From Leucoraja ocellata (Eukaryota), in NCBI GenBank assembly GCA_036785375.1, contig JAWMAR010001838.1:1-64000 (forward strand): a stretch of 64,000 bases of DNA, read 5' to 3'. This document shows positions 4,322-62,200 of this stretch, piece after piece. The notes beneath the pieces are model-generated. The model saw only the letters and a program-made list of their open reading frames with translations. It ran no database searches and was not told the DNA's origin. The translations under genes were made by a program, and so were the position numbers. The first letter of the stretch is position 1. Each line of letters opens with the position of its first letter.

Positions 4322-5137
4322 TTAAGTGTAAAATATAAGTATAAAGTATCCTTTATTGTCATTCAAACTGTCTCCAGTCTGAATGAAATTGCATACCTTG
4401 CAGTCATAACAAAAAATAAAATAACATAACACACAATGAACACAATTTAACATCCACCACAGTGAGTTCACCAGGCACCTCCTCACTGTGATGGAAGGCA
4501 AAAGTCTTAAAGTCCTTGTCTCCTCCCTCCTTGTTCTCCCTCTACGTTGAGGCGATCCAGGCTTTTGATGTTGAAGCCCCCGCCGTGTGATGGTAAGTCC
4601 CGCAGCTGAATCCGAGCTCCGCGAACGGGCCGGTTCAAACTCCGCGGCCCGGGGCGGACGAAGTTCCCACCCTCCAGTCCAGTGGACGAAGCTATTGCCG
4701 CAGGGAGCTCCGGAGAATTGGTCACCAACCTGGGACCTGCGAGCTCCCGATGTTGTTGTCCTCTGGGCCCGCGGCCGAGCTTCCTAGGCCCCGAAGTCGG
4801 GCCATTGCCGCAGCGCCACCACAGCCCCCAAGTCGGCCAGCTTCACTATAGTAAGTAAGTCCTGGCTCTGCCTCCGGAGCCTTGAGGTCGGTCCCACTTG
4901 GAGGCCACCAGCTCCACCATTAGGCCTCAGCGCAGATGGAGACGGAGATGGAGACGGGGATACGACAAAGAAAAGGTCGCACATCCCCCCTGAAGGAAGA
5001 GATTAAAACCATCCCCACACATACACAACTAAAAATAAACTAAACATACATCTAACAAGACAAAAGAAAACAAAAAAATAAAAGACAGACGGACTGCAGG
5101 CGAGCCGCAGATGCTTGGACAGTGCCGCCACTTCCGG
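4322..5137 (-). mobile_element. GC-rich non-autonomous retroposon with Rex1-type tail (copy A)
   Basis: 5' head ccggaagtggcggc..ctgcggctcgcctgcagtc; 3' ccttccatcacagtgagga..stem-loop..tgacaataaa; both ends match 18424-19011. Confidence 0.75.
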
Positions 5138-5829
5138 AATGTTTATTTTATTTATTTTATTTATTGGAGATGCACATTGTCCATACATTTCATATATTTA
5201 GGTAAGAAGCCAGAAAATAACCTTAACATGCTTTAAGAATTACTTTTTATAATAATCTGTTGTGCTCAGGTACCTAAATGTTGATAACCCAATCAGAGTT
5301 AGTTGAATATGTGAGGACTGGTAGCTTTCTTCTGTTTTTCAACTGCAAAAATAATACGTATGTATTTCACACATGTCACATAAATCATCCCACTCATATT
5401 TGTAGTTGTGGGTTTGTTGGGCTTTGAGGGTCTATATTTTATGATCTCCCAAAACTAATGGGAGGAACACAATATATGGTTATTGTTTGGCAGTTGATTC
5501 TGTGACAACTTGTGCTATCTGCTACTTCACATGGTTGCAGCCAACTCTGTGCAATTTTGACTGGGTCCACACGTCAGCAGGAAGCCAATTAGTGCTCTGC
5601 ACCAGTTAGCACTGGCCTGCTCCACGGGAAGCCAGCCTGTAACTATAATAGGTAGTGTATAACGTTATGTTGGGCGCTGGGAGTCATTCTGGAGTTTATT
5701 ATGACCTGGAAGACAACAAGTGGCATTGGACACTAGCCTATCTGACCTTTCCACATTAGACAACTCATCTCTTTGAGATATTAGTCCTGTAAACCTTCTT
5801 AGAATTCCTTCCCAAACACTTGCTACATG

Positions 5830-6090
5830 GTGACCCCATTACAACTGCACCTACGACTACAGGATTATCGATTTTCTACATGGCGACCAATTTTTGGTCG
5901 CCAAAGAATTGCCAACATGTTGAAAAATTTGCGCCGACAATACTGATGCCGCGACTGGTTCCCAGCATGCGGGAACTCCTCGCGACTATGAAGGAGACTC
6001 ACCAGAACACCAGCGAACATGTGGCGATCATGAGGCGAGCGCAGAGTCTCCTGCACTCGCCTAAAAAGTCGCCTAAGTGGGACAGGCCCT
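5830..6090. mobile_element. Harbinger-like MITE, right part
   Basis: Ends aagtgggacaggccct followed by taa, the same TIR end as 51725-52277; internal motif caacatgttgaaaa also occurs at 62270. Confidence 0.65.
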
Positions 6091-6140
6091 TAACAATAGT
6101 ACATCCCACAGGTTTTGCCCCAATTACATCTTACTCAGGG

Positions 6141-6500
6141 CCATAGAGCCTTACAGCATGGAAACAGGCCCTTCGGCCCACTCGTCCATGCTGAACAAGA
6201 TGCTCCATCTAAGCTAGCCTCATTTGCCTGCTATATAGCTCTAAACATTTCATCCATTTACGTGTCCGTGCCTTTTAGCTTCTTTTATGTTATCAGCCTC
6301 CACTACCTCCTCTGACAGCACGTTTCATATAAATACAGTTCCCTGAGTGAAAGAAATTGCCCCTCAGGTTACTTTGAAATCCTTCCCATCTTACCTTAAA
6401 CCTATGTCCTCTGATTCTTGATTCCCTACCCTGGGTAAAAGACTCTGTGCATTCACTCTATTAGGTCAGCTCATGATTTTATACAGCTCTAAAAGATTCA
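6141..6500 (-). mobile_element. Old CR1-type LINE 3' end
   Basis: acagcatggaaacaggcccttcggccc tail and cttaaacctatgtcctct..ccctaccctgggtaaaag typical of the LINE 3' region. Confidence 0.65.
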
Positions 6501-6859
6501 CTGTGTAGATCCTGCCCTAATGCCTCTATGTGGCAGCGCTGTTGAACAGCTGCGGCTCGCCTGCATCAGTGTTTGGAACTCATTTCCTCAAAGGAAAGCA
6601 CAAACAATATATTTGAATACTGTTAAAGCAGAATTTATTTTGTAATGTGGTAACTCATAGTAAAAGCACATACAAAAGTTGAGGTTCTACTGAGATCAGT
6701 CATTGTCTCCCAACATTCCCAGTTTCTATTACTCGCTTGGGGATCATTTACAGTTGCCCAATAACCTACCAACCTGCAAGTGAGGAAACTGGAGTACCTG
6801 AGGGAAACCCACAGGATCAACATACGATCTTCACATGGACAGTACCAGTGGTCACAGGT

Positions 6860-7294
6860 CAATTTGGTTTATACTCTCTAGAATTTAGAAGATTGAGAGG
6901 GGATCTTATAGAAACTTACAAAATTCTTAAGGGGTTGGACAGGCTAGATGCAGGAAGATTGTTCCCGATGTTAGGGAAGTCCAGGACAAGGGGTCACAGC
7001 TTAAGGATAAAGGGGAAATCCTTTAAAACCGAGATGAGAAGAACTTTTTTCACACAGAGAGTGGTGAATCTCTGGAATTCTCTGCCACAGAGGGTAGTTG
7101 AGGCCAGTTCATTGGCTATATTTAAGAGGGAGTTAGATGTGGCCCTTGTGGCTAAGGGGATCAGGGGGTATGGAGAGAAGGCAGGTACGGGATACTGAGT
7201 TGGATGATCAGCCATGATCATATTGAATGGCGGTGCAGGCTCGAAGGGCCGAATGGCCTACTCCTGCACCTAATTTCTATGTTTCTATGTTTCT
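6860..7294 (+). mobile_element. CR1/HER1 LINE 3' end inserted into a minus-strand V-SINE remnant (about 6735-7325)
   Basis: GLYSLEFRRLRGDLIETYKILKG..RTRGHSLRI..FFTQRVVNLWNSLP; (tttctatg)n tail. Confidence 0.93.
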
Positions 7295-8494
7295 AAACCC
7301 GGGCAGCTGGAGATATGCCACTGTACTGAACTGAATCTAAAATGTAAAACCACATAATGGTGTAAAACATGTAACTCTTCTGTCTCACCCAACCTGCAAC
7401 CTTACCCATGTACCTTTCTTAATAGATGTCCATTAGCTAAGGTAGACTGGTGAACAAGCAGGAAGACACTGATGAAGCAGGAATGCTATTACCTGACTTT
7501 GCATTCCTGGTCATTAACTAATTACAGTACACGTATGTGTTATCTAAGGGTAGATTAGAGGCTGGATTTGACCACAGAGAACCAAGGGGCAAAATTATCT
7601 ACAGCCAGGATTGGGCAAAATGGCCAGGTAAAGATTGCACATGTTCTGCAGTGAAGATCTTCAATTAGCACTTTGATGTGCTTGCTACTGATGAATATTC
7701 TTGGGCATACACAATGAAATATGATGCATTGATAGACTTGCAAGCGGTCTCGCGGAGCGTGGATGAGCCTGGCTACAGCCTTATGTGACCTATGACTACG
7801 CTACATGTTGGCACTTCACAGACTTGGCAGAACCCCTCTGGAGCAAAGCAAGAAGCAGAAGTTTTGTTTTAGCAGGCCAACGTTTTGTGTGAGGTGCACA
7901 TTAAACCTGCTTCACATGTTGTTTTGATTGTGTGCTGGAAGCATCAGGCTCAGTGTCAGTTGCTGCATAATGAAGAATTCTAAAGTGTATCACATTCTGT
8001 AAAGGTGCATCAACTATCAAGGAACAAATATTTCAATGGCTAATTAGAAAATAGTTGATGACGTAAGTCAGGGCCTTGGCTGCTGCTGAATGTGTGTTCA
8101 TTGTATAGGGTTGGAGAGGATGTTGGATGTCCAAAATGGTGTGCATTGGCACTGATCTACAGCCTGTAGCACCCAAAATAAATGCACCGTGGAACAGTGT
8201 CGTTAATATGACATTTTATGTCTTTAGTTTTTACTGACAAAATGATAAACAAGTTTCAATAAAATTAACTTTTGGATTGTTGCTGTGATCTGTTCATAAA
8301 AGTGCACTAATTTTCTAGTCACTTTTATATAGATCTGTTCTAATTGCTATGCCTCAATTGTTTATAGTCAGCACAAGATTCAATCAACAGCAATTAGATA
8401 TCTGTTTTGTAATAACTGACATAGTTTGTCTTGTGCACTTTGGTTCCTAGCCTTAAGCCTTTTTGTAGAACAGAGGGATAAGAGTACAAGCACA

Positions 8495-10088
8495 CCATTC
8501 TCTGAAAGTGCCATCGCAGACAGGTAGTGTGGTGAACAAGGCTTATGGCATGCTGGCCTTCATTTGTCAAGTGACTGAGTATAGAAGTTGGGACCTTAGG
8601 TTACAGTTATAGAATACATTGGTGAGGCTGCACTTAGAGTATTGGGTTCTATTTTAGTCATCCTGCTATTGGACTGATGCCATTAAATTGGAAAGAGAAG
8701 ATATACGTGGGTGTTAGCAGGGCTGAGATATGGGAAAAGTTTGCACGGCCTAGGACTTTATTCCTTGGGACACTAAAGGCTGAGGGATCTCCTTTTAGAG
8801 GTATATAAAATCATGAGGAAAATAGATAGGACCGCAGCGGGACCTGTAATATCGTGAAAGACATTACACATCCTTGTCACACTGCTGCCCTCAGTAAAAA
8901 GGTACATGTCGCTAAAGTCACTCACTGCCAGACTCAAGAACAGCTTTTAATCATCAGCAATCTTGGAACTGAACTCTGTCTCGGGAGCGGGTTATGGGGA
9001 AGGAGGGGGGGTGGGAGACAATGTTAATTTATGTAAATGTGAATCCATGGGTGGGTTTGGGGAGGGAGGGAGTGTAAAAAGTATATGTGAATGTTTGAAG
9101 TTCTTTTAAATGGAGAGACACAGTAATCTCGTTGTATGTGACACATGCAATGACAATAAAGCATTCTGGTGTTCTGATGGGATAAAGGCACAGTCGTTTT
9201 CCCAGAGTAGGGAAATTGAAATTTAACAGGAACCTGAGGGGCAACGTTTTCTCACACATTAGGTGATGGGTATATGGAACAAGCTGCCAGAGGAAGAAGT
9301 TGTGGTATAAAGCATAATTGAAAAGATGTTTAGAAGGTATATTGATAGGAAAGGTTCAAAGGAATAAGGGCCAAACATTGGGACTAGCTGCGATAGGGCA
9401 CCTTGGTCAGCATGGACATCTTGGTCAGCATGGGCACCTTGGTCAGCATGGGCACCTTGGTCAGCATGGACACCTTGTTCAGCATGGACACCTTGGTCAG
9501 CATGGACACCTTGTTCAGCATGGACACCTTGGTCCAAAGGGGCACCTTGGTCAGCATGGACACCTTGGTCAGCATGGGCACCTTGGTCAGCATGGACACC
9601 TTGTTCAGCATGGACACCTTGGTCCAAAGGGGCACCTTGGTCAGCATGGACACCTTGTTCAGCATGGACACCTTGGTCAGCATGGACACCTTGGTCAGCA
9701 TGGACACCTTGGTCAGCATGGGCACCTTGGTCAGCATGGGCACCTTGGTCAGCATGGACACCTTGGTCAGCATGGGCACCTTGGTCAGCATGGGCACCTT
9801 GGTCAGCATGGGCACCTTGGTCAGCATGGACATCTTGGTCAGTATGGGCACCTTGGTCAGTATGGGCACCTTGGTCAGCATGGACACCTTGGTCAGCATG
9901 GGCACCTTGGTCAGCATGGACATCTTGGTCAGCATGGGCACCTTGGTCAGTATGGACATCTTGGTCAGCATGGACATCTTGGTCAGCATGGGCATCTTGG
10001 TCAGCATGGCCACCTTGGTCAACATGGACACCTTGGTCAGCATGGACAACTCGGGCCAAAGGGAATGTTTCCTTGCTGCATGACTATC
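8495..10088 (+). mobile_element. Decayed CR1 LINE 3' part, interrupted by a Rex1-type tail (about 8835-9170) and a minisatellite
   Basis: aaggcttatggcatgctggccttcat..gagtatagaagttggga..; resumes at about 9175; terminal gggccaaagggaatgtttccttgctg at 10053. Confidence 0.65.
9396..10047. repeat. 18-bp minisatellite, about 36 units (gg[g/a]caccttggtcagcat)
   Basis: Read directly; accounts for the four overlapping repetitive ORFs. Confidence 0.97.
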
Positions 10089-11657: not shown

Positions 11658-12350
11658 TGAATGAATGAATCTCTTTATTGTCATTGCACATGGTACAACA
11701 AATTTAAAAGTCAATCCCATGGTGCAATTCACAAGAGCAATTTTAAATACATAAGATAAGGTAAAAATATATACATATAAAAAAAATTTTAAAAATTACA
11801 GATAAATAACAATAGCAGCTGAGGTAGAACCATTCAGTTGAATGTGAGTGTTATTTCTTATTTTGCATTGTTAAGTTTACGTATGGCTATGGGGTAGAAG
11901 CTGTCTCTGAGTCTGTTTGTGCGAGTTTTGAAAGACCTGTACCGTCTGCCAGAGGGCAGCAGGTGGAACAGGTTGTGTCCAGGGTGGGAAGGGTCCTTCA
12001 GGATGTTGGCTGCCCTGCCAAGGCAGCGAGAGCTGAAGATGTCCTTCAGGGAGGGCAGTGGGCAGCCAGTGATTTTTTGTGCGGTGTTGATGACCCGTTG
12101 ATGGGCTCTCCTGTCCGCTGCAGAGCAGCTGACATACCATGTGGTTATACAGTACGCCAGCACACTCTCGATGGAGCAGCGGTAGAAGGACACCAGCAGC
12201 TTCTCCTCCAGGTTGTTTTTCCTGAGGATCCTCAGAAAGTAGAGTCGCTGCTGGGCCTTCTTGACTGCTGTGGTGGTGTTTGTAGTCCAGGAGAGATCCT
12301 CCATAATTTGTGTGCCCAGGAATCTGAAGTCTGAGACCCTTTGACATAGA
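11658..12350 (-). mobile_element. Rex1/Babar LINE 3' fragment
   Basis: DLSWTTNT..KKAQQRLYFLR..FYRCSIESVL..LLPSGRRYRS..RLRDSFYP (11858..12304); tgacaataaa plus (attc)n tail. Confidence 0.92.
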
Positions 12351-12358
12351 AGGGCACA

Positions 12359-12446
12359 AGATCAGATTCAGATTCAGATTCAGATTCAAACTTTATTGTC
12401 ATTGTGCAGTGTACATACAGTACAGAGACAACGAAAAGCAGTTAGC
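12359..12446 (-). mobile_element. Isolated Rex1-type 3' tail
   Basis: (agattc)n followed by tttattgtcattgtgcagtgtac. Confidence 0.65.
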
Positions 12447-13156: not shown

Positions 13157-13196
13157 GAAGGCATAGGAGTTGGCACGATGGGATTCTTAAAGAAGG

Positions 13197-18423: not shown

Positions 18424-19011
18424 ATAAGATGGCGGCGCTGCCTTAGCAGCTGCGGCTCGCCTGCAGTCTGTTTGTTTTTTTCTTTTTTTTGTTTGTTCTT
18501 TTGTCCTGTTTTAGTTAATTTTGGTTTTATTTTATTATGTTGTGTATGGGTGTGGGGGGGAACGTGTTTTTGGTCTCTTCCTTCGGGGGGATGCGACTTC
18601 TCTTGTCGTATTCCCCGTGTCCGTCTCCGTCTGCGCCAAGGCCTAATGGCGGAGCTGGGGCAGCGTTCCGGCGGCAACGGAGACCCGGCAGCGGAGCTGT
18701 GGCATTCCGACAGCAACATCGGAGATGTGGCGTTCCAGCGCCAGCGGCGAGTTGACCTCGGTGGACGACAACGTCGGGAGCTCACAGGTCGGAGCAGAGG
18801 GAGAACAAGGAGGGAAGAGACAAGAACTTTAAGATTTTTGCCTTCCATCACAGTGAGGAGGTGTTTGGTGAACTCACTGTGGTGGATGTTAAATTTGTGT
18901 TTATTGGGTGTTTTTGTCATTTTTATTATATGTATGACTGCAGGCAATGAAATTTTGTTCAGACCGAAAGGTCTGAATGACAATAAAGGCTACTTTACTT
19001 TTACTTTACTT
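18424..19011 (+). mobile_element. GC-rich non-autonomous retroposon with Rex1-type tail (copy B)
   Basis: Head aagatggcggcgctg..gcggctcgcctgcagtc; 3' hairpin ttcagacc-gaaa-ggtctgaa, tgacaataaa, (tttac)n. Confidence 0.78.
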
Positions 19012-29771: not shown

Positions 29772-30565
29772 TGAATAATAATATTAATAATAATATATTT
29801 TTTTGTCATTGCACATATGTGCAACGAGATTTGGGTATGCAACTTCTATCCGATGTCATAACTTAAATAACTAATACATTTAGTTTAAATACCCCGAGAA
29901 ACAGGATTTATAACAAGAACTGTAAAACAGTCAAAACAGTATAAAGTGCAAATATGTCTGTGCCGGGTCGATGTGTGACGTGACCATCCGAGGGAGACAG
30001 TCCATGGGGGTGGGGGGCACTCAGCAGGGCCGGTTCAGAGCCGCTATAGCTCTGGGGATGAAGCTGTTCCTTAGTCTGGAGGTGCGGGTGTAGAAGGCCT
30101 TGTAACGTCTGCCGGAGGGAAGTAGTTCGAACAGTCCATTACAGGGGTGTGAGGAGTCTTTGTGAATGCTGACGGCCTTCCTGAGGCACCGTGTGTGGTA
30201 GATGCCCTCCAAGGCTGGTAGCTGTGCCCCAATAATCCTCTGCGCTCTGTGGACGACGCGCTGAAGAGCTCTCCTCTCCGCCTCCGTGCAGCTGAGATAC
30301 CACACAGAGATGCCATACGTTAATATGCTCTCTGTGGTGCAGCGGTAGAATGTTGTCAGCAGCTGTTGGGGCAGACCAGTCTTTTTTAATGTTCTCAGGA
30401 AGAACAGTCGTTGCTGTGCCTTCTTGACCAGCGCAGCGGTGTTGGTAGACCATGTGAGGTCCTCTGAGATGTGAGTGCCCTGAAACCTAAAGCTGGACAC
30501 TCTCTCCACACTGTCCCCGTAGATGGAGATTGGTGCGTATTCCCCATTATGTGTCCTCCTGAAGC
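29772..30565 (-). mobile_element. Rex1/Babar LINE 3' fragment
   Basis: VERVSSFRF.GTHISEDLTW..KKAQQRLFFLR..LLPSGRRY..RLRNSF (30021..); (tta)n tail. Confidence 0.92.
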
Positions 30566-30782
30566 ACCAGCGATCATCTTTACTTACATTATGGATGATG
30601 TATTCTGATGGTTGCCATAATTCTACAAGTCTTTGGTGCTTCACTCAGTTATTTCTCAAGGTCTATTTCTAGTAATGTTTAAAGGGTTATGTGTGCCAGG
30701 TCATTTAAAGGCTACAAAACAAATCAATTACTCCCAAAATGATTCATAACTAGAGTTCAGTTTAGTTTATTGTCACCTGTAG

Positions 30783-36169: not shown

Positions 36170-38890
36170 CAAGTCAAGTCAAGTCAAGTCAAGTTTATTT
36201 GTCACATACACATACGAGATGTGCAGTGAAATGAAAGTGGCAATGCTCACGGAACAACAAAACAACCAAACAAATTATAAACACAATCATAATACACATA
36301 TTATTTTACATAATAAATAATAGAAGGAAAAACGTTCTGTACAGTTAGTCCCTGGTGAGAAAGGCGTTTACAGTCCGAATTGCCTCTGGGAAGAAACTCC
36401 TTCTCAACCTCTCCGTTCTCACCGCATGGCAACGGAGGCGTTTGCCTGACCGTAGCGGCTGGAACAGTCCGTTGCAGGGGTGGAAGAGGTCTCTCATGAT
36501 TTTGTTGGCTCTGGAGTTGCACCTCCTGTTGTATAGTTCCTGCAGGGGGGTGAGTGAAGTTCCCATAGTGCGTTCGGCCGAACGCACTACTCTCTGCAGA
36601 GCCTTCTTGTCCTTGGCAGAGCAATTCCCGAACCAGATGGTAATGTTCCCGGACAAGATGCTTTCCACCACCGCTGCGTAGAAGCACTGGAGGATCCTCG
36701 GAGACACTCTGAATTTCCTCAACTGCCTGAGATGGTAAAGGCGCTGCCTTGCCTTACTCACGAGTGCTGAGGCGTGTGATGACCATGTCATATCCTCAGA
36801 GATGTGGACTCCCAGATATTTAAAACAGTTCACCCTATCCACAGGATCCCCATTTATCCTCAATGGAGTGTACGTCCTCGGATGATGTGCCCTCCTAAAG
36901 TCCATGATCAGCTCCTTCGTTTTTTTGATGTTCAAGAGGAGGCTGTTGTCTTGGCACCAGAGTGCTAGATCAGCCACCTCCTCCCGGTAGGCCCTCTCAT
37001 CATTGTCTGAGATCAGGCCCACCACCACAGTGTCATCAGCAAACTTAATTATTGAATTGGAGCTGAACCTAGCCACACAGTCATGTGTGTACAGGGAGTA
37101 CAATAGGGGGCTGAGGACGCAACCCTGGGGCGATCCTGTGCTCAGGGTGAGGGACTTCGATGTATTCCCTCCCATCTTCACTACCTGGGGCCTGGCGGTG
37201 AGAAAGTCCAGGACCCAGGCACACAGGGAGGTGTTGAGCCCCAATTCCAGTAGCTTCCCGGCCAGTCTGGTGGGGACTATCGTGTTGAAGGCTGAACTGT
37301 AGTCTATGAACAGCATCCTCACGTAGCCCCCCTTCTGGCTGTCCAGATGGGAGAGAGCGGTGTGCAAGACCTGGGAGACCGCATCGTCCGTGGACCTGTT
37401 CGGACGGTATGCAAACTGCAACGGGTCCATGTTCCGAGGGAGGAAGGCGCAGATGTGATTCTTCACCAGCCTCTCAAAGCATTTCATGACTACCGAGGTA
37501 AGGGCCACCGGACGGTAGTCATTCAGGCAGGCTGGGGAGGCATTTTTTGATACCGGTACAATGATGGATTTTTTGAAGCAGGCAGGGACCACGGACTTGT
37601 CCAGGGAGAGGTTGAATAATGTAGTGAGCACTGGAGCTAGCTGCGTAGCACAGGACTTGAGTACTCGCCCCGAGATGCCATCGGGGCCTGCAGCTTTTCT
37701 TGTGTTCACCCGTGTCAGTGCCCTCCTCACGTCGTGCTCGGACAGCGAGAATGTGTGCATATTCCTCCCTTCAGCTTCGGTAGCCAGCCCGCTGTCGGTA
37801 TTGTCGATAGTCGGCAGACCTGGAGTGGTGTTGCCCCTCTCAAAACGAGCGTAAAAGGAGTTCAGGTCGTCAGCTAGGGAGGTGCCGGCACATGCGGATG
37901 AGGGAGCGGTGCTTTGGTAGTTGGTTACAATCCGTAGCCCCTGCCACAGGCTTCTGGTGTCCTGCTGCTCCATCTGTAACTCCATCTTGTCCCTGTACCT
38001 TCTCTTTGCGTCCTTCACCACCCTTCGCAGTCGGTAGGACTCTGCCTTGTAGACGTCCATGTTTCCTGATGCCAAGCCCGAGTTGTAGGCAGCGGTACGA
38101 GCATTCAAGGCCACACGAACAGATCTGTCTACCCAGGGTTTTTGGTTCGGAAAGGTGCTTACCCTAATCGTGGGGACGATGTTGTCAGTTACTGTTGCGA
38201 TGAAGTCCATGACTGCTTCCGCGAACTCACTGACGTCACTGGAACTTGCTTCGAACATATTCCAGTCGACATCACTCAGTGCATGTTGCAGCATGGCCTC
38301 TGACTGGTCGGACCACCGCTTTACGTCCCTCGTCTCTACCGCTTCCCGAACTATCCTCTGTTTATACTCCGGCAGCAGGAAAATGGCAGCGTGGTCAGAT
38401 TTTCCTAGGGGAGGGAGTGAAACGGCCTTGTAGCCTTTCCTGAACGGTGTGTAGCAGTGGTCCAAAGTTCTCTCCCCCCTGGTGGCACACGTGATGTGTT
38501 GGTAGAAGTTCGGCATGACCTTCTTGAGATTTGATTTATTAAAATCTCCAGCCACCACCATAGCCGCTTCCGGGTACTTGTTTTGATGTCGACATAGCAC
38601 ATCGTGTAGGGCCGATAGTGCCACGTCGCTGTCCGCCTGCGGTGGAATGTAGGCGGCTGTGACGATCACTGAGCCGAACTCCCGGGGAAGGTAGAATGGA
38701 CGGCATGAGATTGTCAGGTGCTCCAGGTCCGGCGAGCAGGAACGGGAAAGCATCTTGATATTTCCAGGGTTGCACCAGTTGTTATTGGTCATGAAGCAGA
38801 CTCCTCCACCCTTGGATTTCCCAGATGCTTCTGTTCTGTCAGCACGGTGGACAGTGAAGGACTCGGTTGGGCAGATTACCTGATCCGGAA
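36170..38890 (-). mobile_element. Young Rex1/Babar LINE, 5'-truncated within the endonuclease
   Basis: Uninterrupted ORF with 3' UTR and (ttgac)n tail; the host remnant resumes at ctttccgcagcc. Confidence 0.95.
36345..38890 (-). CDS. Rex1/Babar ORF2 (partial APE endonuclease plus RT); the ORF-track start at 38954 lies in flanking DNA
   Basis: GGGVC, AGDFN, TLDHCY, SDH (APE); KAAGPDG, DYRPVALTS, QFAYRP.RST, LFIDYSSAFNT, GSPQGCVLSPLLYSLYT, KFADDT (RT). Confidence 0.93.
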
Positions 38891-40289
38891 CCTTTCCGCA
38901 GCCTTTATGTTTTTGTGAGAATTCTCTGGCATTCTTATAAATGTAACAGTTCACCCTGTTAATCTAGTGATTCTGAGGTGAACCGTTTCCATTTCTCTCA
39001 TGCTTTTACCATAATAGTCTAATTTTATTGAAATGCAGTGAATGGGTGTCACCGACAAGGACAGAGTAATTTACATTTGGTGGTGACCAGTTTCGGAAGC
39101 AAGTCAATCCTTCAAGTGAAGATACTCCCATTGGGCTTATACCTAGCCAGACCTAACGTTTTCAACCAGCAGTGAAGATTGAGTGGTGGGATATTTCCAA
39201 GTCAGAATTGTGTGCTATTTGAAGGCACTTGTAGGTGGTTTTGTTCCCAGGTGACAGCTGCCCTTGCTCATTTTGGTTGCATGTAACTTGAATTTGAATT
39301 TGCACATTAAGGCTTGGCATGTTGTGGCTGTGCATCAGGATACACGTTCTGCAGCCATTTAGTGTGGGTGATGGATGAAATACCATCTTTAGGGTAGCAG
39401 ATATAGCGCCAGGCAAGATGGAAGTGTGTTGAGAAGGTTTCAGGAGATAAGCTATTTGTACCTCATTGTTGTATATCCAACCTCTTGGTCTTCAAGCATA
39501 GTATTTGTGTGTCAGATCCAGTTAAATTTAAGTTGTTGGTGAATCTAAAGATGATATTTTACCCAACATGTTGATAGTGGGGATTTAGTGATGGCAGTGG
39601 AATTGAATGTCAGGGAAAGTTGTTTGGACTAGGTGTGATTGGCGGTGGTCAGTGGCACTGACTTGCGTGGTGTTCATTGTTGTTACTACTTATCAAACCC
39701 CGTCTGAATATTGTAACTGAAATCACACATTAAATTTCCAAATATCTTCATAAAATCCAAACCTAACATTTCATTATCTGCAGGGTTACAGATGGAATCA
39801 TGATGTGGAAATGTATTGATAAAACAGCTAATGATGGTTAATATACAATAACTACAATACATTTTCTTTCTAGCTTACCACTTTGACCACTTTATTGAAT
39901 CTTTTAGCAATTAGGTGTTGCCATTTAAGTTGTATTTCATTATCTTCTTGTTTTATATCAATATCAATATTCACTGATAACCTTCTCTACATGTCTGAGG
40001 ATATTTTTACGACATTCACTGCATAGTCCTGCTTCACCATAGCACTCTTTCATTTTGGACCCTTATTTTAAAAAAAAAAATTGCAAATTTGAACAAGCCG
40101 CCACGAGTGCCTATCTTCGTTGACATTATTGTAGCCAATCAGGATGCATCGCATGTGTGCTCACATCTGGTCGCCAGTTTCCTCTCAATCCTCAGTTGGT
40201 TCAAGCTCTGGCACGAATAGTGCACGCATTCTGGTTGTCTCACAGAATGTGTTATCTTATCTCTACAATCTCCATCCATTGTGCTGCTA

Positions 40290-44555: not shown

Positions 44556-44620
44556 ATCGGGGCTGAGGCGCAGGTGGCCCGACTCGTAGCTGAGGCGGCG
44601 GCGACCTGACTTCGGAGGCT

Positions 44621-45418
44621 CAGGATAACAGCCTCCTCTTGAACATCAAAAAAACGAAGGAGCTGATCATGGACTTTAGGAGGGCACATCATCCGAGGAC
44701 GTACACTCCATTGAGGATAAATGGGGATCCTGTGGATAGGGTGAACTGGTTTAAATATCTGGGAGTCCACATCTCTGAGGATATGACATGGGCATCACAC
44801 GCCTCAGCACTCGTGAGTAAGGCAAGGCAGCGCCTTTACCACCTCAGGCAATTGAGGAAATTCAGAGTGTCTCCGAGGATCCTCCAGTGCTTCTACGCAG
44901 CGACGGTGGAAAGCATCTTGTCCGGGAACATTACCATCTGGTTTGGGAATTGCTCTGCCAAGGACAAGAAGGCTCTGCAGAGAGTAGTGCGTTCGGCCGA
45001 ACGCACTATGGGAACTTCACTCACCCCCTGCAGGAACTATACAACAGGAGGTGCAACTCCAGAGCAAACAAAATCATGAGAGACCTCTTCCACCCCTGCA
45101 ACGGACTGTTCCAGCTGCTACGGTCAGGCAAACGCCTCCGTTGCCATGCGGTGAGAACGGAGAGGTTGAGAAGGAGTTTGTTCCCAGAGGCAATTCGGAC
45201 TGTAAACGCCCATCTCACCAGGGACTAACTCTACAGAACGTTTTTCCTTCCATTATTTATTATGTAAAAGAATATGTGTGTTATGATTGTGTTTATAATT
45301 TGTTTGGTTGTTTTGTTGTTTGTCTTTTGCACAAAAGTCCGCGAGCATTGCCACTTTCATTTCACTGCACATCTCGTATGTGTATGTGACAAATAAACTT
45401 GACTTGACTTGACTTGAC
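44621..45418 (+). mobile_element. Rex1/Babar 3' fragment, near-identical to 36170-36960 in the opposite orientation
   Basis: NIKKTKELIMDFRRAHHPRTYTPL.. matches the long ORF; one frameshift near 45028; (cttga)n tail. Confidence 0.95.
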
Positions 45419-46698
45419 TAGTATTATCAATCCGTAACCGCACATGCAAGTGCTGCATTTTAGATGCATATGCTTTTAAATCATAATACTCAACATTTCT
45501 AAATTGATGCCCAGTGTGTGTGGTAATGATGACTCTGGTTAGTCCATCTGGCACCTGTGCTGGATATGGAGTTAGTTGCCCCCCCCCCCCCCCCAGGCTT
45601 GAGCACTGGCATCTATATTAATAACTAAAGTAGGGTTAGCCCCCCACTGTAGCTCTGATATAGCTCCAGTGGGTAATTTCATGATTCGATCATAGTGACC
45701 CGAATATCGTTTTAGTGCGTACCTTTGTTCTTTGTAGATTTTGATAGTGCAAAGGTCCGATTTGTCCATGGTAGTACATGGCTTCAACCTAGATTTATCT
45801 GGAGTAGGACGAACCCCAGTGTTTCAAGGAGCTGTTTTGTAGCTAATACTGCTGCCACAGCCAATTCCTTTGTTTCCCTACTGTGAGAATATCATCCAGA
45901 TATGCTATGACAATATACTTTTGTTTCCTTAGTATTCCCATGGCTACTTTTAATATTTTGGTGAATTGTCTAGGGGCTGGAGTTAGACCATTGGGCAATC
46001 TCTATACTACCACAGCTGCCCCAACCAGCTAAATTTTAGGTATCTGCAATGATCCTTGTGTATGGGTATTAGATAGTAAGCATCTTTAATATCAATGCTT
46101 GCTATAAATTATCCTTTGGAAATCAGTTGTCTGACAGTAACAAACGTCTCCATCTTGAAATGTATATACTAAACAAACTTATTTAGTGATGTTAAGTCAA
46201 TGATGATGCGGCTTCCACCATCTTTTTTGGGCCAATGTTGAACTGGCGATAATATCTCTGATATAACTGAATTTTGTATCCACTAATGTTGTTGAGTATA
46301 TACTAGTTACTCGTGACATTACCCCATGCTTCTTTAAACAAGTGTATTCGCCCCCTGTTAGTAGAGCACCCTTGTTCTCTATATGCTGGCAGGAACCAGA
46401 CCCACCTACCTCCATGGTTATGGGTATTCTTCTGTTTCCTCCAGGTCCAACGAGTCTTACACGTCGTATGACGTGGTGGGGGTGGCGCATTTTCCCTGGG
46501 GCCTGCTCTGGGCCCTGGCCTGAAAGGCTTACAGGATTGGCATGCAGGCCCCGAGCTTTCACCAGTACCATAAGGTATACCCAGCTGGTGGATGCATTAG
46601 AGGTACTGCTGACTGGTTTACGTGTGGTGCTCATTCCAGACCCTGCCGCCTTACCCCGATATTTTTGACACGTCGTCCAGTTTTTTGAAAAACTTTGT

Positions 46699-47244: not shown

Positions 47245-48154
47245 ACCTCATGACTACCTGTCTTGGAGAGGTTCTTTGAAAAGAACAGGTAGTAAGCTGG
47301 TCTGTCAGTCGAGACTGAAATTTATCTCACTAGTGGTGAAGCCACATAGCGGCCACACCCAGCAGCTGTTCCTGATCCTGTACCTCAAGCATACTCCCGA
47401 TGTTGTTCAGCCAGTGACCCCTCTTCTTGACCAGCCCAGCTCTGGTCCCATCAATCCCTCGACAAGGGAGATGGCCAGTGCAATAGCACTGGAGTGGGAG
47501 TGTTAGCTCCCTTGGCAGTTTTTCGGGAGTTTTTAGCTCCATGACCTCCTCTGGCTTGGGGAAACAGACATACTTGTTTTTTGTATGAAGTGCTGATCCC
47601 ATCTTCCGTGTCTGTCTCCAGCCTGAGGTTTGGTCTTACCTTGTTGTTAGAGGCTGCCTGCCGTTTTCGGGCGGCATTTCAGCGGTTCTCGGGCGGCGAG
47701 TCTCCTTGTCGGGAGTCTGCAGGGGTGCCAGCCGGTTTTTAAATTTCCCTCCGGTCCGCTGCTGTTAGTCAAACAGCTGTTTAGCGGACCGGGCATCAGC
47801 GCAGCACCCGTGTCTGTGGACCGCAGCGTGTGCGGTCCCGTTGCCGCCTCTCCCCCCTCCACTGTCGGCTCCTTCACTGGAGTCGAACGGGGGCCGCTTC
47901 CCTCTGGTGCTTTGCTCCCCCTGGAGCAAAAACACAAGGAAAAGACCGATGAAGGTAAGTACTTACCTAACGTTCCTTTCTTTCAGGCTAGTTGCGGGAG
48001 CGCCCGACTCCCGTCTGGCCGCTGTTGCACTGCTGGCGTTAATGCCGCGCCTGCGCACTGAGCGGGTTCTTCACGGAATCACTCACGTGACTCCGAAGTA
48101 AAATTACTGTAAACGTTGTTGTGTTTTCAATCTATCACTGCCACCTCATCCTCT

Positions 48155-48990
48155 AGGGGCGCTGCATTGGCAGCAGCCTCTACCTACAGCCTGTCTGTCA
48201 TTTCTATTTTTTTTTTAGTTAGTCTAAAGTCTGTTTTAAGGGGAAACTTTAACTTTTCTATGTGGGGGAGGGGGGCAGGGTAAGGGGGGAAACCGTTCCC
48301 CAGTCTCTTCCTGACGGGGACGCGACTATTTCTCTGAGTCGCGTCCTCGCCCCCCACCTCGCGGCCTACCAGCTGGACCGGAGCGGCCTTTCCTGCCGGG
48401 GACCGGGAACCGGACCAGGGCTGCTACAGCGGCGGCGCAGCGCTGGAGTCACCGCGGAGCGGGCGATGCCTACCTGGGTCGCCGTTTGGAGCTCTGGAGC
48501 GTTGGGCCGCTGCTCCAACATCGTGGAGCTCTGGTGCGGAGAGCTTCCAACGCGGGCGGCGCTGACCGTTATCGTGGAGTCCTGGGGCGCCTTGTAGAGG
48601 GTCGCCAGCAGCAGTCTCCACCCGGTGCGGCCTGCGGACTTTGGAAGCCGCAGACTCCGGTAGGAGGGGGCCGACTCTGTGTCCGTGCCGCTGAGGACGT
48701 CCCGCAGCCCCGACGTTGGACTTACAACACCCTGGCGAGCGGTCCTGGACATCGGGCCGCCCGTAGCTGCAACTGCGGAGGGCACGGGGAGGCCCTGACC
48801 ATGGGGAACAATGGAGACTGACTTTGGTGCCTTCCCACACAGTGGGGAACTTTGATTCTGCTGTGTGGGGATGTTTTGTGTTAAATTCTATAGTGTGTTG
48901 AGTCCTGTTTATTTTTATTGTATGGCTGTATGGGAATTCATTTCACTGTGCCATCTGGTACATGTGACAATTAAATCTATCTTGAATCAT
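48155..48990 (+). mobile_element. GC-rich non-autonomous retroposon (copy C)
   Basis: ggggcgctg head, T-tract, G-tract, GC core, gccttcccacacagtg, catttcactgtgccatctggtacatgtgacaattaaa. Confidence 0.7.
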
Positions 48991-54383: not shown

Positions 54384-54389
54384 TGTTGT

Positions 54390-54879
54390 GGGTCTGTGGA
54401 CGACGGCGCCGGGAGCCCGCGGCTCCCTGGAGAGAGACCGCTTTTCGGGGCTCTGCAACGGCGACTTCTCCCGCCCGTGTTGCGGGGTCGAAGAGCTCCT
54501 GGAGCGGGGCCTAGCACCATTGCCCCGCGCGGCTGGAACGGCTGCAGGACTTTACGAGCGCACACCGGGGGCTCTAACACCAAGACCCGGTGTGCGACCT
54601 CGCGTGGCTTTAATGGCCGCGGGACAATCGCCATCGCCAGCCGGGGGCTATGACTTTGACTTTGACATCGGGGGGGGGAGAGTGCAGTGGAGAGATAAGT
54701 TTTTTTGGCCTTCCATCACAGCTATGTGATGGATGTTTATGTTAAATGTAATTATGTTGTGACTGGGGTCTATTTGTGTGTAATGTATGGCTGCAGAAAC
54801 GGCATTTCGTTTGGACCTCCAGGGGTCCAAATGACAATTAAATTGACTCTTGACTCTTGACTCTCTTGACTCTTGACTT
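54390..54879 (+). mobile_element. GC-rich non-autonomous retroposon (copy F, 5'-truncated) inside DIRS
   Basis: TSD gtgttgt at 54383-54389 and 54880-54886; (ttgactc)n tail; removing it rejoins SRKFNDNT-EWMLNS. Confidence 0.85.
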
Positions 54880-54886
54880 GTGTTGT

Positions 54887-56400: not shown

Positions 56401-57680
56401 GGTGTTTCTTCTGCTTCTTTGTCGGATGATGAGTCTTCTGTGTTGTCTGACGTGTTGCTATTGGTTGGGGGTGACGCATTTTCCATGGGGTCTGCTCTGG
56501 GCCTTGGCCTAAAAAAGGCTTGTGATGTGCGGACCCCGCGTTTTCAACAGTCCCATAGGGTAGACGTCGACTGGTGGACGCGGTGGGGTACTGCTGCTTG
56601 GGTTTAGTGGGTTTGCTCGTCCCGGGGCCTGCCCTCATGAGGTCAAATGTTTTGGACTCCTCCTTCATATCTTTTACTTTCTTGGAGAGGTTTTTGCCGA
56701 AGAGCAGGATTTTTGGCTCTGTGGTGGGCGTTTTGCACAAACCCGTGAATTTCGGGTTGAGGACAGGTCTTATAATCTCTTTACGGAGGTTGTTAATTTC
56801 TAACTGGGTATTGCACAGCAGTGCGAGTGTATCCTGCTGATTCGTGGCCATCCACAGAACGAGCATATGAAGTGATGGCTGACGTCAGGAGCCTGAGGAT
56901 CCGCTGTAGTTTGAGCTCTTGATTGCAGATATTTGGCCCAACGTGCCCCTAGATTTGGCTGTTGACAGCCGGCACGTTGAGCGAGGCACAATTCTCAGGG
57001 GCCGAATACAGCTCTAGGGCCTCATTAACTATCTGCTCCTGTAGGGGCTTGAAGGACAGGTAGTTAATGCTGGCCGCCAGTTTTGGCTCTAATGGCTGTC
57101 CTGCAAGTGGAGCTGCCACGTAGCGGTCTACCACACCCAGCAGCTCTTCCTGTTCCAGTACCCCAAGCGTACTCCCGACATCTTCAGCAAGTGACCACTC
57201 TTCTTGACCAGCCCAGCCCTGGTCACCAAAGCTGCCCTCGGATAAGGGGGAAGTGATGGCCAGTGCGTGAGGCACTGTGGCGGGAGTGCCTGAACTCCCT
57301 CTGTGAGACTGCCCCTCTCGAAGCAAGTCTCGCTGGAGCTTATGCTCCACGAGCCGCTCCATGCGGCTCAGACGACTGTCTCTGCCCCGAGCGGGCAGTG
57401 AGACGTCCCCGTCCGAAGAATCGGAAACCACCGGCCAGTTAGTCTTCCGTGCTGCTTTACATCCAGCCCGCTGCTCAGGCTGCGCTAGCGGGACTGGGCT
57501 CGGCACGGTGTCGGGGATGGCGGATCGCTGGGTTAACGGTCCTACCGCCTCTTGCCCCCCCCACTGATGGAACGCTCCTCCGTTGGAGTCGAACGGGGGG
57601 CAGATTTCTTGGATAGTCTTGTTTTGTTCATGTTCTCCCTGTTGAAACAAAACAAAACCCTTCTTTTCCGGAAAAAACAA
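56396..57680 (-). pseudogene. DIRS ORF1 (gag-like), frameshifted
   Basis: ORFs 56949..57680 and 56396..56866 lie between the 5' ITR and RT; PENC..L.VP.VN and LLFG..L segments. Confidence 0.7.
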
Positions 57681-59223
57681 CCTCAGAATAAACTTACCTG
57701 ACGGTCCGTCTTTTTAAACTGTAGCGGGAGCACCTGACTCCCGCTGCGTCGCTGTTGCACTGCGTGAACGCAATGTCGCGCATGCATGCTGGACGGGTTC
57801 TTCACGTAGTCACTCACGTGACTCCAAAGTAAAATTGCAGTATATATCTCTACACTCTGTGTGTCTGTGTGTGTGAGAAAGAGAGAGGGAGAGAGAAATG
57901 TAATTTTATCGGCACTGCCAGAGAGATGAGCTGATAGATTTGCAGGTTTCCAGGTGGGGGAGAATGGCATTGACTCCACTCATATTAATTCCTGCGTATC
58001 TTGTTTGAATAGAAAATCAGAAACCAAACTGAATCCACCCGCGATCCTCGGAGCACGATTATTAACAGCTCAATGTGGAGTTGAATGCCTGTTTTCCTGC
58101 CAGTGGACATGATACTGTAGTGGTAATCTGTTCCACCTATTTTTTGACTCATTGAAGGAAAAGGCTCGTTGCAAGACAATGAGGGTTATTCAACCATGGT
58201 CTAGCTCATTGATTTAATTTTAAAACATTAAAACAGGTACAGCATCCCTAAATGGATTCCCATGTTCCACCAGAAACGTTGGAGCAGTTCTGTACCTGCA
58301 TCTGCAGTGCCTGGACTGTACAAGTGCTCCACAATTCTCATTTGGAAAAGCATCAAGGTTTATGCCTGGATACATGTTTCCAGGTCAAAATATTTAATTG
58401 ACTGTATATATTTAATTGTCCAGGCTGACTTTTGTCATAGCGCCCACCCCGCCTATCGCAAATGCATTCCAATTCCTCGGTAAGCTGCAGGCTGCTGCAT
58501 AGCATTGTTAGTCATTTGCAATACAGGCCTTGCTGGTGTGTACAGCAATGAATTGTGCAGTAATTGCTGGCCGCAAATAACATAATTTAAAAGAGGCAGC
58601 AGAAATGTAGTTTATTGCACACAATTCATTCATTGGGCACAGGTTTAATTGCACATTGTGATACCAGTGCCAAGTTTTGAGGTAAGCCTATTTTTCCCTC
58701 TGTGTAATTTTGTTCAATACTCTTTTACACAATAAATAGATGCAGTTCAGGATGAACTATGACACTGGCAACAATTGGTAATCAGCAGAGCCTGTACCTT
58801 TAAGATAATGGTACTGCACCTTACACCTTAGTCAGTGGGACATCTAGATTGCTGGCAAGTTTCAGTGCCATGAATGCATGATGACATTTGTTTTTTAATT
58901 GCACTATGAAGGTATGTTCACTATAGTACTTCAAACATTACTGATGCCAGGAGCTGAAAGGATAACTGTATACCAACATAAAATGAAGCCACCTTACTTA
59001 ATGTTCTTACTTGTGTTTATTATAATATAATGGGCCTCAGGGTTACATGTAATATTATTGAATATGCAAGATTTGTTTAATCTCTTACAACGCACTCCAA
59101 ATCTTTCCAAGAATTACATTTTTGCACCAAAATTATATTGAAGCAACATGCTGTCAGAATTGTTTATTAATTGTAACAATTTATTATTATACAATGTGCC
59201 CATTATAAAACAACATCTACTAT

Positions 59224-59598
59224 ATCCGCTGTTCTAGGTGTGGACTCCTGTATATTGGCGAGACCAAGTGCATAGTGGGCGATCGTTTTGCTGAACACCT
59301 TTGCCTGGGCCTACACGATCTCCCTTTTGCTAAACGCTTTCACTTCCCCTCCCCTTCCCGTACTGACCTTTCTGTCCTGGGCCACCTCCACTGTCAGAGA
59401 GAGGTCAAACAGTACCTCATATTTTTCTTGGGCAGCTTATGACCCAGTGTATGAATATTGATTTCCCTAACCAAGTAACCCTTGCTTTCCCTCTCTCTCT
59501 GCCCCTCCCCCACCCCAGTTCTACTACTAGGTTCACTGCCATCCTGATTCATTTTACTATTTGTATGCCTTGTTGTCACCTTCCCCTAAGCCAACAAT
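59224..59598 (+). pseudogene. Penelope GIY-YIG endonuclease remnant
   Basis: Translates as IRCSRCGLLYIGETKCIVGDRFAEHL; downstream LIFFLGSL..MNIDF. Confidence 0.8.
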
Positions 59599-60512
59599 GT
59601 ATTGATATTGGTGTATTAGTGTCATGTGTTCTGAGATAGAGTGAAATTGTTTTATGTGCAATTCAAGTGAAACATACCATGCAATAATGCTTTCATGCTA
59701 TACATGAGTTCTACAGTCAAAAAAGAGTATATGAACGAGAATATAGCATTATAGCAGCAGAGAAAGTGAATGTAAAAATGTGCTGGGGTGGTGCAACAAT
59801 GTAGGTGGCGATGATTGCAAATACATCCTCAGAATATGAGAAGTCTTTTCAAATCTGAGAACAGTAGGGAAGAAGCTGTTATTGAGCACATGCTTCCAAG
59901 CTTCAGGTTATTCTGCATAATGGGAGAATGAAGAACAGGGAATGACGGTGTGAGTGGTCCTTGATTGTATTGTAGAAACAAGGATGGCTGATGCTGGTTT
60001 GCAATCAAATGTCAAAATGTTAAAAGAAGGAAGGGTCCTGACCTGAATTGTTACCTATCCATGTTGTCAAAGGATGCTGCCTGCCCTGCTGTGTTACTCC
60101 AGCACTTTGTATCTATTTCCTTGATTATGTTGATTTACGTTGCCTCAGATTATGTTCTGAGGCAAAGTGAAGTATAAGGGCAGTCGATGGGATGGAGGTT
60201 GGTTTGTGTGATGCACTGGGCTGTATCTACTAATGTCTGCAGTTTCTTGCCGTCTTTGGCTGAGCAGTTGTCATACCAACCTGTGATAGGAAGGTTTCTA
60301 AAGTGCATCTGTAGAATTGCCAAATTTCCTTATGGGCTTGTCCCACTTACACAACTTTTTCGGCGACTTACGGCACTAGTCATAGGTCGTTGCAGGTCGC
60401 CAAAAATATTCCACGTTGAAAATCCAGCGGCGACCAGAAAGACGCTACGACTCTTTGGGCGACTGAAGACTCTTTGGGCGACATGTCACGGGGTGAAGCT
60501 TGTATGGTCTTA

Positions 60513-62200
60513 TGGGGCGCCGTCCTGTTTGGCTGCCCAGCCGGCAGCTGACCTTTTTACATCTCTTTTTTTTATTTTTAGTTAGTTGAGTTTTTGTTTT
60601 TCAGAGTTCTAGTCATTTTTATGTGGGCGGGGGGGGGAGGGGGAAACTACTTTCTAAGGTCCCTACCTGGTTAGAGAGGCAGCTTTTCTCCGGGCTGCAC
60701 CTTCGACCCGTCCTCGTGGATTACCATCGGGCCTGGAGCGGCGTTTCCTGAGGGGACTGCCCAGTACCTCGGCTTCGGTGGCGGCACAGCGTTGGAGCGC
60801 TATCGTGGAGCGGGCGATGCCTTGCCCGGGTCGTTGCGCTGGAACTCCGGTCAGCTGAAGACCGCCGATGAAACATTGTGGAGCTGCGGGTCTGTGGAGC
60901 GGCCAGCCGCGGGCGGCGGTGCTGCACTTTACATCGGGAGCATGGGATCTCTCGCCGAGATCGCCAGTGTGTGGAGCTCCGTCCAGCGCGGCCGGTTGGC
61001 TTTGGAAGCCGCGGTCTCCGGTACGGAAGCGGCCATTCCAGGTTTCCCATGCCGCTGAGAGGGTTCTCCCGACGCCGGAGCACCATCATCCGGCGAGAAC
61101 GGCCTGGAACATCGGGCCTCTGTAAAGGCGACTGCGGAGGCCTTAATAGGCCCGACTATGGGTGGACATCAAGATCAAGATTCAAGAGATTCAATTTAAT
61201 TGTCATTTGGACCCCTTGAGGTCCAAACGAAATGCCGTTTCTGCAGCCATACATTACAAACAAATAGACCCAAGACACAACATAATTTACATAAACATTC
61301 ATCACATCGCTGTGATGGAAGGCCAAAAAAACTTATCTCTCCACTGCACTCTTCCCCCCCCCCCGATGTCAGAGTCAAAGTCAAAGCCCTGGCGATGGCG
61401 ATTGTCCCGCGGCCATTAAAGCCACGCCGGGTGATGCGAGGTTGCACACCGGGTCTTGGTGTTAGAGCCCCCAGCTTGCGCTCGCAGAGTCCCGCGGCCA
61501 TTCCAAGCCGCACGGGGCGGTGATGTCAGGCCCCGCTCCAGGAGCTCTTCGACCCCGCAACTCGGGCGGGAGAAGTCGCCATTGCAAGAGCCCTGAAAAG
61601 CGGTCTCCCTCCAGTGACCCGCGGGCTCCCGGTGCCGCCGTCAGCCAGACCCGCAGTTGCAGCCTCCGAATCTCCGGAGGTCGGGCCGCAGCAGCAGCAG
61701 CAGCGCTCCACCACCGCTCCACCCGCTCTGGAGTCGGCCAGCTCCGCGACGGTGACGGTGAGTCGTCGGCACCAGAGTCCCCGGTCTTCTCCTGTTGGAG
61801 GCCGCTCCTCGTTGCAGCCCCAACGACAACGGAGACCCGACAAGAAAAGGTCGGGTCTCCCGTGCAGGGAGAAATTTAAAAGTTACCCCCTTCCTCCCAC
61901 CCCACCCCCACCCCCCCACAAACACACCCCAACAAAAAATAACAAAAACTACATAAAAACATAGACAAAAAATAATAAAAACGCGGACGGGCTGCAGGGG
62001 CCGCTGCTGACGAGAGTCGCACATGGGGATGGGGACTGGACTTTGTGCCTTCCCTCATAATGGGAACCATTGTGGGGGGATGTTTTTTATGTTACATTTC
62101 TTTATTATTGTTATGTTGTTTTCTTTTTTATGTGCTGCATTGGCAATACGCATTTCACTACACCAATTGGTGTATGTGACTAGTAAATAACTTTTTGAAC
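60513..62200 (+). mobile_element. GC-rich non-autonomous retroposon (copy D)
   Basis: ggggcgccg head; 3' gactttgtgccttccctca..catttcactacaccaattggtgtatgtgac. Confidence 0.7.
61170..62020 (-). mobile_element. GC-rich non-autonomous retroposon (copy E), same subfamily as 54390-54879
   Basis: 61190-61645 is a close reverse complement of 54396-54845; head ..agcagcggcccctgcagcccgtc. Confidence 0.82.

Follow-up and report, generated by a model that had tools for sequence, protein, structure and literature searches.

Which machinery copies the GC-rich elements that recur along a 64,000-nt stretch of the Leucoraja ocellata genome and carry no protein-coding gene of their own? The stretch (the window) comprises positions 1 to 64,000 of contig JAWMAR010001838.1, contig C1838 of the 3.44-Gb assembly. 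A first-pass annotation, made from the letters of the window alone, had described the elements as non-coding retroposons that appear to use long interspersed elements (LINEs) of the Rex1 type. We find, with good confidence, that they belong to a protein-less retroposon superfamily that carries a Rex1-like hairpin tail in its last 40–60 bases and, in half of the families, a match to the Rex1 5′ end in its first 35 bases, and that is likely copied in trans by Rex1 from RNA probably made by RNA polymerase II (Pol II). Mobilisation by Rex1 is proposed by analogy with known LINE partnerships.

Elements of one layout in the window and the genome

The six elements listed by the annotation, for which it had claimed one shared layout, are all present where it placed them (Table 1). 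The element it had read at 60513–62200 is real, but it is actually element D (~0.83 kb), split by an antisense insertion of element F. Specifically, a 4-base duplication lies at the junction of the F insertion, and reads of one or more relatives join 61165 to 62021 across the F site with 4 shared letters. The head fragment reported near 6530 is present as well and resembles the head of B (86% over 36 nt, E = 5e-6), with nothing element-like behind it. Element E matches family F at 86% over 501 nt.

We searched the genome DNA with A, B, C, D and F and scored 40 candidates for each, out of 5,800–8,400 first-look candidates, numbers that are not copy numbers. All scored candidates matched, mostly co-linear and near full length, and the copies start at a fixed 5′ end and close with short-repeat tails that vary. 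In the flanks we found families G, H and I as well (consensus from 19 copies each), and at least six additional families were seen as partial copies. Genome-wide collection of copies, a check that the annotation had proposed, yielded eight subfamily consensuses of 567–901 nt. The top-ranked copies, a set biased to close copies, have a median identity of 90–97% to their own consensus. The dispersed families, together with the absence of a Pfam match for any of the 12 open frames from five of the six elements, support a non-coding retroposon superfamily as the annotation had described it; no protein product is encoded.

The terminal hairpin is shared with Rex1-type LINEs

The partner LINEs carry a single frame of 989–1331 aa that runs from the 5′ end and contains the domains RVT_1 and PF09004. 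They have endonuclease and reverse transcriptase in one frame, no ORF1, and a 3′ untranslated region (UTR) followed by short repeats, which is the description of the Rex1 clade in PMC6274825 and PMC13343379.

A Rex1 tail of the same frame as the element tails had been claimed at about 45358–45400; its hairpin lies at 45357–45397, and the frame is common to tails of Rex1-type LINEs. Starting from Rex1 protein matches, we found that 30 of 65 C-terminal ones are followed by a tail of this pattern. These tails form 16 clusters, and two clusters proved spurious on inspection. Scanning 1.58 Mb for the motif, we obtained 244 tails, which group into 66 clusters; nearly all of them fold in one frame, with a 4-bp basal helix, a free upper stem, AATAAA and repeats. 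The terminal stem (SL3) has an unbulged form, found in A, B, F, G and H and in the Rex1 families R5 and R12, and a form with one bulged base, found in C, D and I and in R1, R6 and R7; both forms therefore occur in Rex1 families. All of the hairpins quoted in the annotation were found, but those of C and D, given there with 2-nt loops, fold with longer loops and a bulged base beside the 4-bp basal stem.

The frame and anchor words of the 3′ end are common to all eight families and the Rex1 tails, and the tails of D and R1, I and R1, and H and R5 align over 47–54 columns. By score, the best partners are R1/R8 for D and I, R8 for C, R5 for H, and R12 for A and B, with no clear best Rex1 partner for the tail of F. 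By this common frame and these alignments, the 3′ end of the elements is homologous to a LINE 3′ end and shared with the partner LINE.

The claimed covariation of the 3′ stem-loop is borne out. When each family is represented by a single sequence, the 14 element families preserve 69 of 70 inner pairs (mean 37 and maximum 59 in 20,000 permutations), and the 10 Rex1-linked tails preserve 41 of 50 (permuted mean 33; 48 of 20,000 as high). Furthermore, the basal helix is paired in 96 of 96 cells. RNAalifold was run on mixed element and LINE tails split by type (14 and 8 of the 24 sequences, two ambiguous ones omitted). It returned 9 pairs for the unbulged type, four of them with two-sided changes in 6–7 of the 14 sequences, and 10 pairs for the bulged type, five of them with two-sided changes.

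The 5′ head resembles the Rex1 5′ end in half of the families

In full-length copies of R1, R5 and R12, the single frame starts at the very 5′ end. These three Rex1 families begin, at the extreme 5′ end, with ATGGCG and GC-rich then T-rich sequence, or an equivalent; in R1 and R12 a T-rich run encoding a hydrophobic stretch comes after the GC-rich start. Among 24 head comparisons, none of 2000 shuffles was as good as the B–R12 or G–R12 alignment, 5 were as good for A–R12 and 2 for I–R5. The B–R12 and G–R12 alignments extend over 28–35 nt and cover both arms of the head hairpin. In particular, B and R12 have their first 14 bases in common, with codon 6 of B being a stop. The layout of the heads can be aligned across all eight families. 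The 5′ end of the elements thus appears homologous to the LINE 5′ end, significantly so in four of the eight families and by layout only in the other four, and the GC head and T-tract are most simply read as a decayed Rex1 5′ end.

The Rex1 families have features of their own. R5 (L271–L286) is young, with a single frame of ~1,330–1,440 aa that includes an N-terminal GC-rich minisatellite; the minisatellite, with Pro/Arg/Gly-rich units of 18 and 27 nt, varies in length, is kept in frame and holds splice-donor-like words on the sense strand. R1 (L093–L120) has many full-length copies with a variable-length A-rich run just before the 5′ end, which is unusual for a LINE 5′ junction. R12 (L361–L369) is a very recent Rex1-type burst: the C-terminal 146 aa are the same in more than 100 copies, and several frames are close to 1,000 aa long. 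No full-length copy of the old, abundant family R6 was present among 11 fetched.

The body carries two conserved hairpins and cores of two clades

Every family has a hairpin (SL1) behind the G-tract, with an 11–14-bp stem and a pyrimidine-rich loop. SL1 is more stable than expected in seven families (z −2.1 to −4.7; the value for C, from a misplaced window, is not counted). In 21 diverse natural copies, SL1 has 11 pairs, seven with two-sided changes, and 88.7% of 230 cells are paired, a level reached by 0 of 500 shuffles, with slid registers at 29–59%. A second hairpin (SL2) lies ~100 nt before the tail in seven of eight families (z −2.1 to −5.0); two-sided changes in it are few. The annotation had mentioned neither SL1 nor SL2, nor the likeness of the head to a Rex1 5′ end. 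By eye, we also noticed a weak AT-rich SL2-like hairpin in the Rex1 3′ UTR, in R1 only.

The annotation had proposed swappable GC-rich cargo between the two ends. As worded, this is not supported: the cores are homologous within A, B, F and G and within C, D, H and I, they vary by internal duplication and deletion, and exchange was observed only occasionally. Identity is 67% over 683 nt for C and D, 73% over 436 nt for C and H, 72% over 522 nt for F and G, and 71% over 161 nt for A and F, while no BLAST match was obtained between the clades. The cores contain internal repeats whose number changes from copy to copy. Family H combines a C-like front and core with an unbulged, R5-like tail and has no SL2, and is the best sign of module exchange. 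In addition, reads of a relative contain an F-like front that runs into another core.

In older subfamilies the word CTTACCT, a strong antisense splice-donor match, stands right before SL1, and similar words recur in the cores.

Abundance and insertion marks

In 60 arbitrary 10-kb stretches from large contigs, we counted 30 fragments covering 9,729 of 599,400 bases (1.6%), two of which are the source of their own library entry. The 3′ end is reached by 16 of the 30 fragments, the 5′ end by 8 and both by 3. Extrapolated to the genome, this corresponds to ~172,000 fragments (Poisson range 116,000–246,000) and 56 Mb. The copies show 5′ truncation and variable repeat tails, both marks of target-primed reverse transcription. 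Long target-site duplications were not found among 145 non-redundant full-length copies: the mean longest shared word is 5.2 nt versus 4.9 nt when permuted, and a shared word of at least 7 nt occurs in 15 of the 145 versus a permuted mean of 9.6 (maximum 15). Young element families coexist with young Rex1 families that bear intact frames.

Nested or abutting elements and Rex1 copies occur at several loci (L291 on G000:C132, L287 and L038), with F inside G, B beside Rex1, and C tail-to-tail with a B-like tail. Other short GC-rich sequences have a Rex1-type tail and no SL2 (flanks of L285, L073 and L216; clusters 19, 35 and 57), and are possibly further, unrelated Rex1-dependent families.

Transcription

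A tRNA or RNA polymerase III (Pol III) origin was rejected. ARAGORN found no tRNA gene, and Rfam, run on the window at E up to 1, found in the elements no head of 5S, 7SL or tRNA type and no ribozyme or other family; its single match, to a microRNA family, is unrelated and lies outside the elements. A B box is present in none of the eight families and an A-like box in one, while the first run of four or more T lies at nt 46–59 in all eight.

When raw reads of a relative are mapped, they spread along the elements, most of them at less than 95% identity, and form no start peak. In single-cell data of a relative, sets of 445, 436 and 262 reads have an A-run immediately after the tail (agreement with the consensus only ~0.5), whereas none of 134 genomic copies has one. 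The A-run fits cleavage at the tail AATAAA, and is compatible with a start in the element or in a host gene. Strand-biased single-cell peaks beside the T-tract were left out of account, since they probably reflect internal priming.

Coordinates and neighbouring features

Table 1. Elements, hairpins and Rex1-type LINE pieces in the window, and subfamily copies elsewhere that bear CTTACCT before SL1
Feature	Position	Strand	Remark
Element A, full length	4322..5139	-	89% to family consensus; 3′ end abuts 5′-truncated Rex1 copy
SL1 of A	4956..4989	-	pyrimidine loop
SL2 of A	4449..4499	-	
SL3 and AATAAA of A	4352..4386	-	
Head-only fragment, A/B-like or Rex1-like 5′ end	6530..6565	+	matches B head
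Element B, full length	18426..19011	+	short core
SL1 of B	18585..18616	+	
SL2 of B	18840..18890	+	
SL3 and AATAAA of B	18955..18987	+	
Element C, full length	48150..48990	+	
SL1 of C	48316..48348	+	
SL2 of C	48829..48875	+	
SL3 and AATAAA of C	48938..48975	+	
Element E, 5′-truncated F-family copy	54387..54879	+	inside DIRS-like element; by sequence comparison
SL2 of E	54708..54737	+	
SL3 and AATAAA of E	54807..54842	+	
Element D, 5′ part	60511..61169	+	
SL1 of D	60669..60708	+	with internal loop
Element D, 3′ part	62021..62200	+	contains SL2 (62047–62084) and SL3 (62155–62187)
Element F, antisense insertion in D	61170..62020	-	~12 nt short at 5′ end
SL1 of F	61831..61861	-	
SL2 of F	61294..61323	-	
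SL3 and AATAAA of F	61195..61230	-	
Rex1-type LINE, R1, 5′-truncated	36194..38895	-	open frame with RVT_1 and PF09004; tail hairpin 36194–36234
Rex1-type 3′ fragment, R1	44606..45419	+	tail hairpin 45357–45397
Rex1-type 3′ fragment adjoining A	3610..4321	-	tail hairpin 3632–3672
Rex1-type 3′ fragment, other family	11660..12361	-	tail hairpin 11674–11701
Rex1-type 3′ fragment, further family	29780..30644	-	with tail hairpin
CTTACCT-bearing copy	L058:3190-3284	-	
CTTACCT-bearing copy	L155:685-779		
CTTACCT-bearing copy	L225:8937-9031		
CTTACCT-bearing copy	L239:9056-9150	-	

The window also holds CR1-like and Rex1-type LINE pieces, a DIRS-like element and a Tc1-like element. Its repeats resemble those of a ray or skate. 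The DIRS-like pieces, at 46197–47800 and 52994–57713 (minus strand), have a tyrosine recombinase-like frame and a reverse transcriptase frame, and element E is oriented opposite to the DIRS-like element around it. Tc1-like transposase frames (DDE_3) lie at 15584–16614 (minus strand), with related copies near 581–891 and 2774–3190. An 18-nt tandem array at 9288–10100 has no CpG and is open in several frames. The whole window recurs near-identically on another contig (G000:C154, ~950,000–1,015,000), at 98–100% for elements A, C, D and F and the Rex1 copy. This is a second haplotype or a duplicated assembly, and such twins account for several pairs of loci among the search results.

Discussion

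The proposed life cycle joins the two LINE-like ends. A Rex1-type head, perhaps aided by the CpG-rich core, would start a Pol II transcript that the tail AATAAA would end. By analogy with stringent LINE/SINE (short interspersed element) pairs (PMC3747384), the Rex1 reverse transcriptase would bind the terminal stem, that is, the 4-bp basal helix and the variable upper stem, and prime on the repeats behind it. On this proposal, the copies end in repeats and not in poly(A) because priming takes place on those repeats. SL1 and SL2 would be kept by selection on the RNA; as a guess, they serve RNA stability or the binding of a host or Rex1 protein. Most likely, a Rex1-type LINE long ago underwent an internal deletion, and its middle was replaced or has changed past recognition; the resulting elements would then have radiated by duplication, deletion and occasional tail exchange.

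Several points weigh against this account. No element tail is identical to any Rex1 tail, the likeness consists of frame and anchor words, and the tails were collected by those same anchor words. RNAalifold returned no structure when both tail types were aligned together, and the pair-permutation test used anchors chosen to favour pairing, ignored relatedness and included one mis-anchored LINE tail. For the heads of C, D, F and H, no comparison with the three Rex1 5′ ends reached significance (at best, 51 of 2000 shuffles were as good), the head hairpin is no more stable than shuffles (z +0.7 to −1.5), and heads that are short and GC-rich might have arrived at the same promoter word by convergence. 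Among the eight consensuses, SL1 shows four distinct stems (807 of 20,000 permutations as high), while SL2 shows little variation (399 of 20,000) and is missing from H. No transcript start was seen in the bulk reads of a relative, which are unstranded and thin over the head. Full 5′ ends were seen for three (R1, R5 and R12) of at least 10 Rex1 tail types. Finally, the partner LINEs are presumably Rex1, a label that we take from domain content rather than from a named reference sequence.

The strongest alternative, in our view unlikely, is that the elements are plain internal-deletion products of another Rex1 family with a long structured 5′ region containing head, SL1, core and SL2, the hairpins being inherited LINE features. 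Head and tail are indeed both Rex1-like, only three Rex1 5′ ends have been seen, and R5 is an example of a Rex1 element with GC-rich repeats close to its 5′ end. In four of the 24 comparisons made with cores, the score also exceeded all 40 shuffles, but those alignments are gappy matches to the R5 minisatellite on either strand, or a 44-nt stretch. The refuting condition set by the annotation, cores that are simple LINE deletion products, did not hold for the three full-length Rex1 families examined: derivation from R1, R5 or R12 was rejected, with no credible alignment and a best E of 0.18 in tblastn searches with Rex1 proteins. The frames of these families start at the 5′ end and leave no room for such a UTR. 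In addition, none of 249 SL1 profile matches in 1.93 Mb lies directly before a Rex1 frame; among ~35 matches outside the searched-for copies, two have a Rex1 frame downstream, and both are complete elements with their own tail.

We consider it quite improbable that a SINE-like element, derived from a cellular structured RNA or a CpG-island promoter, gained a Rex1 tail, with the head likeness reflecting convergence on a Pol II start word. Half of the heads have no match and the body has no known source. In favour one may add that the motif before SL1 in older subfamilies is reminiscent of the start of U1 small nuclear RNA (snRNA). On two 241-nt stretches with such a motif, however, Rfam matched neither U1 nor any further family, with E allowed up to 10. 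Convergence accounts poorly for the B–R12 and G–R12 alignments, with their 28–35 nt and both hairpin arms.

That the hairpins are DNA-level by-products, with template switching keeping near-palindromes perfect and only anchor words mattering for copying, would suit the nearly perfect inverted repeats in the upper stems of element tails but is very hard to credit, as G-U pairs at fixed places (13 of 24 tails at one basal pair; 9 of 21 copies in SL1) and the bulge of the second tail type, kept in elements and LINEs, are not features of a DNA palindrome.

The elements are best read as working like a short internally deleted element (SIDE) or a bipartite LINE parasite of Rex1, not like a Pol III SINE. 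Primate SVA and LAVA are alike in being composite non-coding retroposons with a GC-rich, repeat-variable body, but depend on L1 and poly(A) and are built from Alu and retroviral parts. The closest design is Persaeus, the SIDE of Zenon in Lepidoptera (PMC6740152). Zenon, its partner, is a CR1-group LINE that lacks ORF1; Persaeus retains both ends of that LINE, has no Pol III promoter, occurs in many copies, varies in a central region not clearly like the LINE, and closes its 5′ part with a homopolymer run. Persaeus is ~270–320 bp long and 71–99% identical to the LINE ends, whereas the elements described here measure 570–900 nt, resemble their LINE ends less closely, and have a structured, CpG-rich body and tails of two types. 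The open-reading-frame-less bipartite LINEs in PMC5786205 (RIME, NARTc, Bov-A, RTE-N, Vingi derivatives and R2 SIDEs) likewise have both LINE ends, no protein, no Pol III head and presumed Pol II transcription; the sources listed there are RTE, Ingi, Vingi and R2 only. Here, by contrast, the partner is of Rex1 type, and the 450–750 nt between the ends are untraced to a LINE and contain conserved hairpins. Such a long, conserved, structured body of untraced origin sets the elements apart from textbook SIDEs.

SINE2-5_NV of Nematostella is also a non-autonomous element that shares a Rex1 tail, that of Rex1-24_NV, but it is a tRNA-headed Pol III SINE of a sea anemone; this is the sole Rex1 pair in Table 1 of PMC3747384, which lists none in vertebrates. 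UnaL2/UnaSINE of eel and HER1/HE1 of shark likewise share a 3′ stem-loop followed by short repeats, but have tRNA heads, L2/CR1 partners and another stem-loop (PMC3747384). SINEU, the snRNA-headed SINE, has a U1- or U2-derived head, a poly(A) tail and a Tx1 partner (PMC4494074); in our elements, no U1 or U2 match was obtained and none of the 134 genomic copies has poly(A). Such a family is unmentioned in the consulted sections of PMC6274825, PMC13343379, PMC4494074 and bioRxiv 10.64898/2026.10.27.761883. The literature searched showed no Rex1 or vertebrate CR1-group case of the SIDE or bipartite design, although an entry in Dfam, Repbase or a supplement is quite possible; nor does it describe a Rex1 3′ stem-loop or RNA signals read by Rex1, most subscription journals and Repbase Reports being outside its scope.

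As a more speculative possibility, doubtful at present, the elements may form a separate Pol II retroposon class with Rex1 ends around a captured, still-selected RNA body. SL1 would recruit a host factor and aid capture by Rex1, as SRP9/14 does for Alu, tail switching would follow the active Rex1, and the motif before SL1 may be U1-like or an antisense splice donor that couples the RNA to splicing.

Rex1 occurs widely among fishes and reaches its highest abundance in rays, and its horizontal transfer is frequent (PMC13343379). The 24 tail variants amount to natural mutagenesis and define a minimal predicted recognition element, composed of a 4-bp basal helix, a free upper stem, an optional bulge, AATAAA and repeats. 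Two predicted hairpins keep their pairing despite letter change and point to RNA signals that Rex1 probably reads. The families would extend the bipartite LINE parasites that lack open reading frames to the Rex1 clade, and to a vertebrate in which they occupy more than 1% of the genome, carrying CpG islands and poly(A) signals into many loci.

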